From assembly GCF_003334355.1 (NCBI RefSeq), contig NZ_QOWP01000070.1: DNA of 3,518 bases. One strand, written 5' to 3'. The translations under genes were made by a program, and so were the position numbers. Positions 1 to 3,518 of this stretch are shown piece after piece. How positions within the stretch are numbered: position 1 is the first letter of the stretch; each line of letters begins with the position of its first letter. Origin of the DNA: Escherichia coli (GTDB taxonomy: Bacteria; Pseudomonadota; Gammaproteobacteria; Enterobacterales; Enterobacteriaceae). The notes beneath the pieces were generated by a model. The model saw only the letters and a list, made by a program, of their open reading frames with translations. It ran no database searches and had not been told where the DNA came from.

Positions 1-37
1 ATGCTTCCATCGGAAACGATGATCTGGCAGCCTGAGT

Positions 38-631
38 TCACAGATAAAACACTCTCCAGGAAACCCGGGGCGGTTCACGATGTTCAATAAAAGCATACCG
101 GACGACGGCATCGCCATAAATTTGTGCCTGGTGGACAATACGCGAGGCGCTAACCCTTGCGCGATCATAAATTTGTAGCAGGAGTTGATGGTCGGGCGTT
201 AAGCCTTGTGCGGCGACGATCATAGAATGTTGATCAATTAAGGCGTGACCAAATATTCTACATTGCCCGTAAACTAATGAGTCATGAATGGTGACACTGT
301 CACTTATATATGCACCCTGGCTGATTTCACTATTATCGATCCAGACATTATCCGTTGCGTGAACCTCTCCCCACAGCACGCTGGTGCCGGTGATACGCGT
401 ATTACCGGAAATCACCGTTCCGCCGAACGCAATAGCATTCTGGTCGTAAATCCAGCAATTTCCTTCCTGTGCTAACACCGTTTCGCGATCGATCCAGCCG
501 CCAGCGGTTCCTGCTATCACATCGTTAAAATCGCTAATGGCGATAATCTGCCGTAATAACACACTTTTTTTAGTGCCATCTTCCTGATAACTAAAGGCTC
601 GCTGTTCTTCACTTAGACGATATTTGCGCAT
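38..631 (-). CDS. ydcK: YdcK-like hexapeptide-repeat (left-handed beta-helix) acyl/acetyltransferase-family protein; 197-aa ORF, probably a frameshift-truncated copy of a longer gene (possible pseudogene)
   Basis: Minus-strand ORF from the track (ATG is the complement of 629-631, TGA the complement of 38-40). The translation is full of [LIV]-G-x-x-[STAV]-x type repeats ([46 protein letters not shown]). It is divergent from tehA, as ydcK is in E. coli. A second minus-strand frame stays open from about position 74 to the window edge and still looks repeat-like ([23 protein letters not shown]). Confidence 0.6.
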
Positions 632-754: not shown

Positions 755-1747
755 ATGCAGAGCGATAAAGTGCTCAATTTGCCGGCAGGCTACTTTGGTA
801 TTGTGTTGGGGACGATAGGGATGGGATTTGCCTGGCGCTATGCCAGCCAGGTTTGGCAGGTCAGCCACTGGTTAGGGGATGGGCTGGTGATTCTGGCGAT
901 GATCATCTGGGGATTATTAACTAGCGCATTTATTACCCGACTCATACGCTTTCCGCATAGCGTGCTGGCGGAAGTTCGCCATCCAGTGCTGAGCAGTTTT
1001 GTGAGTTTGTTTCCGGCAACGACGATGCTGGTGGCGATTGGTTTTGTTCCGTGGTTTCGCCCACTGGCGGTGTGCCTGTTCAGTTTTGGTGTCGTGGTTC
1101 AGTTGGCTTATGCCGCCTGGCAAACTGCGGGATTATGGCGCGGATCTCACCCTGAAGAAGCTACCACGCCTGGACTGTATCTGCCGACAGTTGCCAACAA
1201 CTTTATCAGCGCAATGGCCTGTGGTGCGTTGGGCTACACCGACGCCGGTCTGGTGTTTTTAGGCGCAGGCGTTTTCTCATGGCTAAGCCTTGAACCGGTG
1301 ATCTTGCAGCGTCTGCGCAGTTCGGGAGAATTACCCACGGCACTGCGGACATCACTCGGCATTCAGCTCGCTCCTGCGCTGGTGGCCTGTAGTGCCTGGC
1401 TGAGCGTCAACGGCGGCGAGGGTGACACGCTGGCGAAAATGCTTTTCGGTTATGGACTGCTGCAACTGCTGTTTATGCTACGTCTGATGCCATGGTATCT
1501 CTCCCAGCCATTTAATGCTTCATTCTGGAGTTTCTCGTTCGGCGTATCTGCACTGGCAACCACCGGTTTGCATCTGGGGAGTGGCAGCGATAATGGATTT
1601 TTCCATACGCTGGCGGTGCCGCTGTTTATCTTTACCAATTTTATTATTGCAATACTGCTCATCCGTACTTTTGCGCTTCTGATGCAGGGAAAATTGTTAG
1701 TCAGAACCGAGCGCGCCGTTTTAATGAAAGCAGAGGACAAAGAATGA
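755..1747 (+). CDS. tehA: Tellurite resistance protein TehA; TDT-family inner-membrane anion transporter, homologue of plant SLAC1 channels
   Basis: Long plus ORF (track 647..1747) encoding a strongly hydrophobic multi-pass membrane protein that I recognise as TehA. Start placed at ATG 755 ([19 protein letters not shown]...), which gives 330 aa and has a purine-rich GAGTAAGAAG just upstream. In-frame ATG 743 and GTG 647 are alternatives. The TGA stop at 1745-1747 overlaps the tehB ATG. Confidence 0.9.
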
Positions 1748-2337
1748 TCATTCGTGACGAAAACTATTTTACTGATAAATATGAATTAACCCGCACACAC
1801 TCTGAAGTACTGGAAGCGGTGAAAGTGGTTAAACCGGGTAAAACGCTGGATCTGGGCTGTGGCAATGGTCGTAACAGTCTTTACCTGGCAGCCAATGGTT
1901 ATGATGTTGACGCATGGGATAAAAATGCCATGAGTATCGCCAACGTCGAGCGCATTAAATCTATTGAAAATCTGGATAATTTACACACTCGGGTCGTTGA
2001 TCTGAATAACCTCACATTTGCTGGACAGTACGATTTTATTCTTTCGACTGTGGTGCTGATGTTCCTTGAGGCTAAAACCATCCCAGGGCTGATTGCCAAT
2101 ATGCAACGTTGCACGAAACCTGGCGGTTACAACCTGATTGTGGCGGCGATGGATAGCGCTGATTATCCATGTACCGTCGGCTTCCCGTTTGCCTTCAAAG
2201 AGAGAGAATTACGTCGATATTACGAAGGCTGGGAGATGGTGAAATACAATGAAGACGTCGGCGAGCTGCACCGCACCGACGCCAACGGTAATCGTATTAA
2301 ACTGCGTTTCGCCACGATGCTGGCACGTAAAAAATGA
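1744..2337 (+). CDS. tehB: Tellurite resistance protein TehB; class I SAM-dependent methyltransferase
   Basis: 197-aa ORF. SAM-binding motif I LDLGCGNG at 1846-1869 ([17 protein letters not shown]). The overall sequence matches what I know as E. coli TehB. Its start overlaps the tehA stop in ATGA (1744-1747), and AGAGGA lies about 10 nt upstream inside tehA. Confidence 0.95.
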
Positions 2338-2343
2338 CCCGGT

Positions 2344-2398
2344 AAGAACAAAGCGCGTGAAAATTCCCCACGCTGAGATGGTTTACTGTTCTTCTTTT
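2344..2398 (+). terminator. Weak candidate stem-loop with T-tract downstream of tehB
   Basis: AAGAACA (2344-2350) pairs with TGTTCTT (2387-2393), enclosing an inner GCGTG/CACGC stem (2355-2359 with 2369-2373), followed by CTTTT (2394-2398). The outer stem is AT-rich and the loop large, so this is not a canonical intrinsic terminator. Confidence 0.2.
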
Positions 2399-2497
2399 CG
2401 GTAAGCATATTTTTTATCGAAGGGATGTGAAATTAATCACAGTAGTCGAAGTTTTTTAGCAGCTTAACTAACTGAAATTTAACTACTGATGATTGAC

Positions 2498-2543
2498 TTA
2501 GCCCCTTTTTCGGCATTGACTATGTCGTCTGAAAAGGGGCTAA
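2498..2543. repeat. Perfect 12-bp inverted repeat (TTAGCCCCTTTT / AAAAGGGGCTAA) separated by 22 nt, in the tehB-ydcL spacer
   Basis: Arms 2498-2509 and 2532-2543 are exact reverse complements. The 7-mer ATTGACT occurs as a direct repeat at 2492-2498 and 2515-2521, the second copy inside the loop. An A6 run follows, not a T-run. Confidence 0.5.
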
Positions 2544-2594
2544 AAAATTTATTTTCACCAACACTTTTTTTGCCACAACACGAAGCGGCGCTTT

Positions 2595-2631
2595 TTGCTA
2601 TAACTTAAAAAGTAATATAATCATCTCAGGA
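2595..2631 (+). promoter_or_regulatory. Candidate ydcL promoter and ribosome-binding site: -35-like TTGCTA (2595-2600), consensus -10 TATAAT (2616-2621), Shine-Dalgarno AGGA (2628-2631) 8 nt before the ATG
   Basis: Exact TATAAT hexamer 19 nt upstream of the ydcL start, and AGGA at canonical spacing. The -35 match is weak and the spacer is only 15 bp, so the promoter call is tentative; the RBS is solid. Confidence 0.3.
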
Positions 2632-2639
2632 AACTATTC

Positions 2640-3308
2640 ATGCGTACCACATCATTTGCGAAAGTTGCAGCTTTATGCGGCTTATTGGCTCTGTCTGGTT
2701 GTGCCTCTAAAATCACCCAGCCAGATAAATATTCTGGTTTTTTAAACAATTACTCTGATTTAAAAGAAACAACCTCGGCTACAGGTAAACCTGTTTTACG
2801 TTGGGTAGACCCGAGTTTTGATCAAAGCAAATATGACAGCATCGTCTGGAACCCAATCACTTATTATCCGGTACCGAAACCGTCGACCCAGGTAGGGCAG
2901 AAAGTTCTGGATAAAATTTTGAACTATACCAACACCGAAATGAAAGAAGCGATAGCGCAGCGTAAACCACTGGTTACCACCGCTGGGCCGCGTAGTCTGA
3001 TTTTCCGTGGGGCCATTACCGGTGTAGATACCAGCAAAGAAGGGCTGCAATTCTATGAAGTGGTTCCTGTTGCATTAGTGGTTGCGGGGACGCAAATGGC
3101 TACAGGCCACCGTACCATGGATACTCGCCTCTATTTTGAAGGTGAGCTGATTGATGCAGCGACTAATAAACCGGTTATCAAAGTCGTTCGTCAGGGCGAA
3201 GGTAAAGACCTGAATAACGAAAGTACGCCAATGGCTTTCGAAAATATTAAACAAGTTATTGATGACATGGCGACCGATGCCACCATGTTTGACGTTAACA
3301 AAAAGTAG
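2640..3308 (+). CDS. ydcL: Lipoprotein YdcL (DUF3313-type, function unknown); probable outer-membrane lipoprotein
   Basis: 222-aa ORF. The N-terminus MRTTSFAKVAALCGLLALSGCAS is a signal peptide with lipobox L-S-G-C (2691-2702); Ala at +2 predicts Lol sorting to the outer membrane. Good SD, TAG stop at 3306-3308. Confidence 0.9.
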   Translation: MRTTSFAKVAALCGLLALSGCASKITQPDKYSGFLNNYSDLKETTSATGKPVLRWVDPSFDQSKYDSIVWNPITYYPVPKPSTQVGQKVLDKILNYTNTEMKEAIAQRKPLVTTAGPRSLIFRGAITGVDTSKEGLQFYEVVPVALVVAGTQMATGHRTMDTRLYFEGELIDAATNKPVIKVVRQGEGKDLNNESTPMAFENIKQVIDDMATDATMFDVNKK

Positions 3309-3316
3309 TTCCAGAC

Positions 3317-3341
3317 GCGCCATCGTTAGATGGCGCTTTTT
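3317..3341 (+). terminator. Rho-independent terminator downstream of ydcL
   Basis: Perfect 8-bp stem GCGCCATC (3317-3324) with GATGGCGC (3329-3336), 4-nt loop GTTA, then TTTTT (3337-3341). It starts 9 nt after the ydcL stop. Confidence 0.6.
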
Positions 3342-3518
3342 ATCCGGTGCGCCGTAAAACCCCATCCTTCAGGGCGGGGATATAAGGCGCGGTTTTCCAC
3401 CTGACCAGGTGTTTGCTGTTGTTCAATGTATTGGCGGATGACGGATATTGGCGCACCTCCGCAGCTACTGGCAAAATAGCCAGGACTCCACAAAACGCCT
3501 TTGTAGTAATACCTGACT
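3326..3518 (-). CDS. tnpA: IS200/IS605-family transposase TnpA (Y1 HUH tyrosine transposase), C-terminal fragment; gene continues beyond the 3' edge of the window
   Basis: Minus-strand frame open from the window edge to TAA (complement of 3326-3328). It translates to VRYYYKGVLWSPGYFASSCGGAPISVIRQYIEQQQTPGQVENRALYPRPEGWGFTAHRIKSAI*. The stretch LWSPGYFASSCGGAPISVIRQYIEQQQ matches the conserved C-terminal helix of IS200/IS605 TnpA that carries the catalytic tyrosine, as I recall it from IS608 TnpA (not an aligned comparison). The ORF track omits it because no start codon lies within the window. Confidence 0.6.
   Translation of the reverse strand, partial: VRYYYKGVLWSPGYFASSCGGAPISVIRQYIEQQQTPGQVENRALYPRPEGWGFTAHRIKSAI
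3344..3518 (-). mobile_element. End of an IS200/IS605-family insertion sequence (IS609-like), partial; exact junction with the chromosome uncertain, roughly 3309-3349
   Basis: Contains the TnpA C-terminus and an adjacent imperfect palindrome. A TTTAT pentanucleotide sits at 3339-3343; this family inserts 3' of short AT-rich target motifs. An IS609 copy downstream of ydcL is known in E. coli K-12. Confidence 0.4.
3349..3390. repeat. Imperfect palindrome: 19-nt arms (3349-3367 and 3372-3390) with a 4-nt loop; candidate subterminal hairpin of the IS200/IS605-family element
   Basis: Pairing the arms gives 14 Watson-Crick pairs plus one G-T, with mismatches spread through the stem. IS200/IS605 ends carry imperfect subterminal hairpins of this kind, recognised by TnpA. 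It overlaps the last codons of tnpA. Confidence 0.4.

Follow-up and report, generated by a model that had tools for sequence, protein, structure and literature searches.

The tehAB genes of an Escherichia coli strain form an ordinary core operon behind a conserved NsrR operator

Overexpression of tehAB from multicopy plasmids makes Escherichia coli resistant to tellurite, with TehA described as a transporter and TehB as a SAM-dependent methyltransferase (PMC12348037). Expression of the two genes has no effect on tellurite efflux or uptake, and the mechanism of resistance has been called unknown (PMC5437285). The locus therefore raises the question of what these genes do natively. A previous reading of the same DNA, made from the sequence alone, had stated that resistance is conferred mainly on overexpression and that the physiological role is unclear; both statements are textbook knowledge and are backed by these two papers. 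That tehAB is a pair with an unclear native role is thus already known, the genes have long been annotated, and we claim no discovery on this point. The features of the window, i.e., of the whole stretch of 3,518 nucleotides that we analysed, are the following:

1-77, plus strand: right end of the IS3-family element IS629, truncating ydcK; 100% identical to the IS629 ends in Stx phages
78-631, minus strand: 5' part of ydcK (hexapeptide-repeat YdcK family), 185 codons; profile match and alignment with K-12
632-754: divergent spacer between ydcK and tehA, 123 nt
706-728, no strand: NsrR operator, 11-1-11 inverted repeat of 23 bp, AAAATGCATTTCAAATATACTTT; identity to a published site and matrix score
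755-1747, plus strand: tehA, predicted inner-membrane anion channel of the TDT/SLAC1 family, 330 aa
1744-1747, plus strand: ATGA in which the stop of tehA and the start of tehB overlap; direct reading of the sequence
1744-2337, plus strand: tehB, cytoplasmic class I SAM-dependent methyltransferase, 197 aa
1846-1869, plus strand: SAM-binding motif I LDLGCGNG, TehB residues 35-42; direct reading of the sequence
2269-2295, plus strand: codons of TehB H176, R177 and R184, all three residues being present
2338-2639, plus strand: spacer between tehB and ydcL, ~300 nt, with a 12-nt perfect inverted repeat
2640-3308, plus strand: ydcL, intact gene for a DUF3313 lipoprotein (Pfam DUF3313, E 4.8e-63)
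3317-3336, plus strand: terminator-like hairpin followed by a T run, 3' of ydcL
3344-3518: left end of IS609 (IS200/IS605 family), with the 3' end of a decayed tnpA on the minus strand

The sequence-only reading had placed the pair between a disrupted acyltransferase gene and the end of an insertion sequence. This is correct on the left side, where ydcK is disrupted. The fragment covers positions 1-185 of the 326-position YdcK_fam profile, and its product remains in register with the K-12 YdcK up to residue 185, where it runs into insertion-sequence DNA with a stop. The match of AP000400.1 to positions 1-77 of the window is annotated as [quoted passage not shown], and in strain Y5 the identical 77 nt terminate an element of the IS3 family. 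On the right side the description does not hold, since the end of IS609 is separated from tehB by the spacer of ~300 nt and by an intact ydcL, whose protein is identical to its K-12 counterpart. The IS609 feature of K-12 begins with the sequence found at position 3344 of the window, and the minus-strand open reading frame in this end matches the C-terminus of the IS200 transposase.

The spacer between tehB and ydcL carries an indel relative to K-12, such that an ungapped comparison with K-12 is invalid beyond position 2456. The arms of its inverted repeat (2498-2509 and 2532-2543) are followed by an A/T-rich sequence, and this repeat is a possible terminator of the operon; a consensus scan found no canonical terminator directly 3' of tehB. 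E. coli PSS-12 matches the window with 100% identity from position 78 on. The four best genome matches with apparent “100% coverage” were rejected as an artefact, in which an unrelated IS629 copy inside IS609 had been joined to the match. A scan of the whole window against Rfam (E<=1) identified no known RNA element. Its sole match, to a Tetrahymena snoRNA, was attributed to chance (17.8 bits for a gathering score of 70).

The limits of tehA and tehB taken together are exactly 755-2337, both on the plus strand, according to the table of open reading frames and to the sequence itself. Both genes are full length, with no frameshift or stop. Counting differences from K-12 gene by gene, we found a single substitution in TehA (A61T) and five in TehB (D93A, R94G, T138S, G154R and R165M), none of them at a conserved position. 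A93 and R154 of TehB each occur once among the 80 sequences compared, and the allele that combines them is common to other E. coli, e.g., PSS-12. The gene identities proposed from the sequence alone are amply confirmed: TehA scores far above the curated cut-offs of its equivalog families (NCBIfam NF008032, 571 bits vs 342; TIGR00816, 374.5 vs 237), as does TehB (NCBIfam NF008405; Pfam PF03848; 398.1 bits vs 218, over residues 1-197), and the matches to solved structures agree.

TehA had also been described as a SLAC1-type homologue, and the structural matches bear this out. Its residues 5-315 align with residues 5-312 of the Haemophilus influenzae TehA (PDB 3m71, E 2e-61), and among the PDB entries it further matches the plant channels SLAH3 (E 2.4e-9) and SLAC1 (E 1.6e-6). 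Phe262 is the pore gate in the H. influenzae protein, HiTehA (PMC3172217). In our alignment F262 of TehA (codon 1538-1540) lies opposite this residue, and it is invariant among 49 TehA orthologues. TehA is hence predicted to be an intact ten-helix anion channel of the SLAC1 fold that retains the phenylalanine gating the pore.

TehB matches the solved E. coli TehB structures (PDB 2xva and 4dq0) at about E 1e-130. The SAM-binding motif LDLGCGNG is intact at residues 35-42, as had been read from the sequence alone, and among 80 TehB orthologues L35, D36, L37, G38, C39, G40 and G42 are invariant whereas residue 41 varies. H176 and R184, too, occur in all 80, and position 177 is taken by either R or K. 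We take these three to be the oxyanion-binding, active-site residues of the solved E. coli TehB. A study of the structure and mechanism of TehB by Choudhury et al. in 2011 is said to have assigned a catalytic role to H176, R177 and R184. Judging from these residues, TehB is predicted to be a class I SAM methyltransferase in which motif I and the three oxyanion-positioning residues are all in place. The K-12 TehB, which is 97% identical to the one studied here, has been reported to methylate tellurite and selenite in vitro in a SAM-dependent manner.

The 123-nt spacer between ydcK and tehA contains an NsrR box (706-728), which ends 26 nt before the ATG of tehA. Among the 11-1-11 NsrR sites predicted for strain CFT073 and tabulated in PMC5320621, the one at tehA is exactly the reverse complement of 706-728. 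We built a symmetrised weight matrix from 20 other published NsrR sites, taken from the available part of this table. The box scores 24.7 bits, the runner-up position of the window 10.9, and the 20 training sites 12.9-23.8. The operator had been overlooked in the sequence-only reading; it is the sole sequence-level clue to the native role of the pair, and it was already published.

We searched 73 related enterobacterial loci (883 kb) with the same matrix. In 67 of them the best-scoring position of the locus was a site of at least 17 bits, and everywhere else in the 73 loci the score stayed below 15 bits. The conserved box always lies immediately upstream of tehA or, in loci lacking tehA, of tehB. 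It tracks tehA and not the divergent ydcK: it is found 38 nt from tehA in two loci where the spacer is ~800 nt long (L023, L024), and 26 nt from tehA also in a locus where ydcK is not adjacent (L014). The letters of the box differ among genera with the consensus being kept (Escherichia AAAATGCATTTCAAATATACTTT, Enterobacter AAATGGCATTTAAAATACATTTT, Klebsiella AAGGTTCTTTTAAAATGCAACTT). Turnover of this kind, around a consensus that persists from genus to genus, is the pattern expected of a binding site under selection. No sigma-70 promoter emerged 5' of tehA from a consensus scan, promoter matches being fewer than in shuffles, so that we can only infer an overlap between the box and the promoter.

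The link between NsrR and tehAB is already known, and it is its functional meaning that is disputed. In all enterobacteria, according to Rodionov (2005), the tellurite-resistance homologue should be under NsrR control, and nitrite excretion was put forward as its role; the same work reports an NsrR box 5' of the long-form tehB in Photobacterium profundum. In K-12, NsrR was bound at the tehA promoter in ChIP-chip experiments and repressor titration was positive, whereas reporter fusions in E. coli revealed no NsrR regulation of tehA, ChIP-seq in CFT073 missed the site, and deletion of tehAB left the novel NO-scavenging activity of CFT073 in place (PMC5320621). In an nsrR mutant of Salmonella, tehA and tehB changed only 1.1-fold by qRT-PCR. 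The conservation of the box across genera strengthens the case for a functional site, without settling the matter of regulation.

Do tehA and tehB work as a pair? In 49 of 72 syntenic loci (described below) tehA lies directly 5' of tehB. The 4-nt ATGA overlap is found in at least 25 of these 49 loci, the remainder having the two genes within a few bases of each other. Translation of tehA and tehB is predicted to be coupled through this overlap. In the other 23 loci tehB is intact but a full tehA is lacking. They include Kosakonia, Phytobacter, Trabulsiella, Yokenella and some Buttiauxella and Cedecea, and in most of them ydcK and tehB are separated by a spacer of ~115-145 nt that contains the NsrR box. 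One Escherichia sp. locus (L004) retains a remnant of TehA, residues 42-102 only. Elsewhere, Streptococcus has a long TehB alone, tehA is found alone on ~142 Salmonella megaplasmids and several Cronobacter plasmids, and tehB alone on Rahnella plasmids. The loci without tehA and the stand-alone occurrences lead us to regard TehB as the constant element and TehA as an optional partner.

The weightiest rival explanation goes further and holds that TehA and TehB are functionally independent neighbours whose order on the chromosome is accidental, TehA being a general transporter of anions or lipophilic cations and TehB a stand-alone methyltransferase. The 23 syntenic species with tehB and no tehA, the solitary tehB of Streptococcus and the separate occurrences on plasmids of Salmonella, Cronobacter and Rahnella all fit this explanation, as does the resistance to antiseptics and disinfectants that TehA alone is reported to confer (credited to Turner 1997). 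It accounts poorly for the strict adjacency of the genes in 49 species, with the ATGA overlap in at least 25, and for the single operator 5' of both genes. On balance we consider full independence a real possibility, albeit one that we think will more probably fail than hold.

The second rival takes the name of the genes at face value: detoxification of chalcogens would be their native function, with TehB methylating tellurite or selenite and TehA exporting the product. Reviews do present TehB as methylating tellurite and TehA as an efflux protein. The conservation of H176, R177 (as R or K) and R184 in 80 orthologues is compatible with this function, and so is the coupling and adjacency of the two genes in 49 species. 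However, resistance appears on overexpression only, and expression of tehAB leaves tellurite efflux and uptake unchanged. In the available part of a genome-wide deletion screen on tellurite published in 2025, the methyltransferase hits are MetE, CysG, YfiC, RsmJ and RsmD, not TehB; tehAB is not among the hits given there and appears only as background. A full tehA is missing from 23 of the 72 syntenic loci, and the conserved operator belongs to a sensor of NO, not to a sensor of metalloids. Finally, one review calls tellurium a super-trace element, which would make selection for tellurium across all Enterobacteriaceae unlikely. We therefore hold a native role in chalcogen detoxification to be unlikely.

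The surroundings of the genes had been called an accessory-like context in the sequence-only reading, and this did not survive the analysis of genomic data. We found tehAB in 5413 of 5426 complete E. coli genomes (99.8%) at no less than 95% identity, with a median of one copy; the chromosomal places numbered 5411. A scan across species, in which one genome per species was kept, gave 80 tehB loci. Of these, 72 share a common neighbourhood, opgD-(ydcH)-rimL-ydcK-[tehA]-tehB-ydcL...ydcO, free of the insertion sequences, and they span Escherichia, Citrobacter, Salmonella, Enterobacter, Klebsiella, Raoultella, Kluyvera, Kosakonia, Buttiauxella, Cedecea and others. The comparison of neighbourhoods that had been suggested along with the earlier claim returned an arrangement conserved across 72 enterobacterial species.

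The dN/dS ratios relative to E. albertii are 0.028 for tehA and 0.050 for tehB (dS ~0.6, unsaturated), values that indicate purifying selection on both genes at the sequence level. None of the 5426 E. coli genomes has the junction between IS629 and ydcK, so that the insertion is private to the present strain. IS609 lies beyond ydcL and is missing from the loci of Escherichia other than E. coli, where ydcO directly adjoins ydcL. Candidate plasmid-borne copies of tehAB in E. coli were rejected, these “plasmid” matches being mostly records of 4.8-4.9 Mb, i.e., chromosomes filed as plasmids. The notion that tehAB is an accessory, horizontally mobile resistance module, which might be drawn from the presence of IS629 (1-77) and IS609 (from 3344) on either side and from the G+C content of tehB (~0.45, below the 0.52-0.57 of tehA), is refuted by the single chromosomal copy in nearly all complete genomes, by the same neighbours in 72 species without these elements, by an IS629 junction unique to this strain and by E. 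coli “plasmid” matches that are mostly of chromosome size, and we give it next to no credence. The interval is the tehAB operon that the E. coli/Shigella lineage ordinarily carries on the chromosome, and it is intact.

A second clue to the native role comes from the architecture of TehB in other bacteria. The long TehB of Streptococcus (286-288 aa) consists of an N-terminal DUF1971 followed by the TehB domain, and the DUF1971 part is homologous to the E. coli YeaR (E 8e-15). NsrR and NarL are both accepted regulators of the yeaR promoter, whose NsrR site is listed in the table of PMC5320621. The two halves of the long TehB are thus encoded in E. coli by separate genes that both have NsrR boxes; by the logic of domain fusion this hints at a shared pathway, in a manner that is suggestive only.

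These elements are best accommodated by an explanation that we think likely as a whole: tehAB is an ordinary core operon with an NsrR operator, it has a role in nitrosative or nitrite stress, and the methylation of tellurite is a side activity. The native context of tehAB is probably nitrosative stress and not tellurite. NsrR would normally hold tehAB down, the operon being part of the response to nitric oxide or nitrite stress. The resulting low native expression, due in part to NsrR, might lie behind the phenotype that has been termed cryptic. Methylation of tellurite and selenite would be a side activity of TehB. TehB would be the indispensable component of the system and TehA an optional conduit for anions.

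A more specific version can be put forward tentatively, and we rate it as rather doubtful in its details. In this version tehB, accompanied by tehA at the loci that have it, would act as a conserved effector in the NsrR response to nitrosative stress, TehA being a channel for nitrite or nitrate and YeaR the partner of TehB. The substrates would then be species of the type of nitrogen or sulfur oxyanions formed under NO or nitrite stress, TehA would be permeable to nitrite or nitrate as are the plant SLAC1 and SLAH3, and the methylation of tellurite and selenite would amount to a laboratory side reaction.

The preferred explanation, i.e., that of a core operon with a role in nitrosative or nitrite stress, changes the question that should be asked of these genes. 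The sole conserved regulatory signal at tehAB is the operator of an NO sensor, and it is kept 5' of tehB even after the loss of tehA. Together with the NsrR-regulated YeaR as the partner domain of the long TehB, it makes a role in nitrosative stress a more sensible question than one in tellurite resistance. This operator and the link with YeaR also account for the fact that the phenotyping of deletion strains on tellurite and selenite, which had been suggested earlier, has been uninformative.

The closest known system is the tehAB pair of K-12 (b1429-b1430), which has the same genes in the same order, the same ATGA overlap and the same neighbours ydcK, ydcL and IS609. The differences amount to 1 of 330 residues in TehA and 5 of 197 in TehB, and to ydcK, which is interrupted by IS629 only in the present strain. 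The H. influenzae TehA has in common with the E. coli protein an alignment over the full length and the gating Phe262. In contrast, the plant SLAC1/SLAH channels have long regulatory extensions in the cytoplasm at the N- and C-termini (chains of 556-635 aa), which TehA, with its 330 aa, lacks.

The long forms of TehB share the methyltransferase domain with the E. coli TehB: the Streptococcus TehB is ~60% identical to it, and the long TehB of H. influenzae (PDB 3m70) matches it at E 6e-68. They differ in that their genes carry DUF1971 and are not adjacent to a tehA, whereas in E. coli this domain is the separate protein YeaR.

As for regulation, the tehA operator resembles those of the core NsrR regulon (hmp, ytfE, ygbA, hcp-hcr, yeaR-yoaG) in its 11-1-11 form and its conservation across genera, and with 24.7 bits it is on a par with the best known NsrR sites. 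The difference lies in the response, core members being strongly derepressed in nsrR mutants (544-fold for ytfE, 284-fold for hcp) and tehA and tehB changing 1.1-fold in Salmonella.

Lastly, the ter operon (terZABCDEF) is called a tellurite-resistance determinant just as tehAB is. According to the available part of PMC8193136, it is found on prophage-like elements or plasmids and gives high-level resistance at its native copy number. The tehAB operon is unrelated to it in sequence, belongs to the core genome and is phenotypically silent at single copy.

tehB adjoins ydcK, with tehA missing between them, in many enterobacterial species (loci L026, L036, L037, L039, L040, L042, L043, L045, L050-L055, L057-L059, L063, L069-L071 and L082 of our numbered tehB neighbourhoods, which hold one genome per species). 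The spacer between ydcK and tehB in these loci is mostly about as long as that between ydcK and tehA elsewhere, and the NsrR box, the operator of the nitric-oxide repressor, is usually present, which suggests a clean loss, or gain, of tehA. In Escherichia sp. MOD1-EC7003, TehA residues 42-102 are the sole remnant of the protein (L004:5749-5931), between ydcK and an intact tehB, therefore tehA underwent an internal deletion. This locus has kept the NsrR box, 343 nt upstream of tehB.

The two genes are also found apart on plasmids. We found a solo tehA homologue (~66% nucleotide identity), without tehB, on around 142 large plasmids of Salmonella enterica (matches H91-H102 of the tehAB search; e.g., NZ_CP016413.1, 147622-148424). 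Most of the plasmids listed are of ~170-320 kb, and they are mostly conjugative. Cronobacter plasmids carry tehA alone and Rahnella plasmids tehB alone.

When compared with K-12, tehB (1744-2337) is much more polymorphic than tehA (755-1747), with 12 nucleotide and five amino acid changes versus three and one, respectively. A93 and R154 of the TehB allele in the window each occur in one of the 80 sequences compared. The R94 of K-12 is also rare, this position being G in 71 of the 80.

Some TehB have a long form (e.g., L074:5719-6582), whose N-terminal domain is homologous to E. coli YeaR (L084:2590-2949; DUF1971, E-value 8e-15). E. coli YeaR is a DUF1971 protein regulated by NsrR and NarL. One paper (PMC4959519) likens it to the TehB methyltransferase domain, which looks like a mix-up of the TehB domains, because the similarity falls on DUF1971.

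The region between tehB and ydcL is larger in Enterobacter, Klebsiella and Raoultella, where it has ~3 kb of extra sequence (e.g., L019:6585-9515; loci L016-L021, L025, L027, L030, L032, L038 and others). Encoded there are a paralogue of peptidase T (688 bits) and a dipeptide-binding protein similar to DppA, the latter scoring 913 bits, below the equivalog cut-off of 1005 bits. The features of the window outside tehAB are:

1-77, right end of IS629, breaking ydcK (78-631, minus strand) after codon 185
2426-2441, TGTGA-aattaa-TCACA, a perfect palindrome of the CRP core type, upstream of ydcL by ~200 nt
2498-2509 and 2532-2543, 12-nt perfect inverted repeat in the tehB-ydcL spacer, followed by AAAAATTTATTTT
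3317-3336, terminator hairpin of ydcL, 8 nt before the left end of IS609 (3344)

The CRP-type palindrome is kept in all six Escherichia sequences of the spacer alignment (A1). In the region 2338-2600, the initial ~140 nt of the spacer are restricted to Escherichia; Citrobacter and Salmonella arizonae lack them. At -78.6 kcal/mol, the spacer folds far better than shuffled sequences (z = -5.4), and it matched no Rfam family. It could serve as a terminator or as the leader of ydcL, or be what is left of a small repeat element.

The window is bordered by two insertion sequences. None of 5426 complete E. coli genomes had the exact IS629/ydcK junction, and its origin is therefore probably in Shigella or in an E. 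coli lineage that these genomes do not sample. The IS629 transposase and tehAB have the same orientation, and read-through from IS629 towards tehA is therefore conceivable. At the other end, IS609 was absent from the loci of non-coli Escherichia. Its tnpA is a pseudogene in the window (3317-3518 region), as it likewise is in K-12 (yncK).
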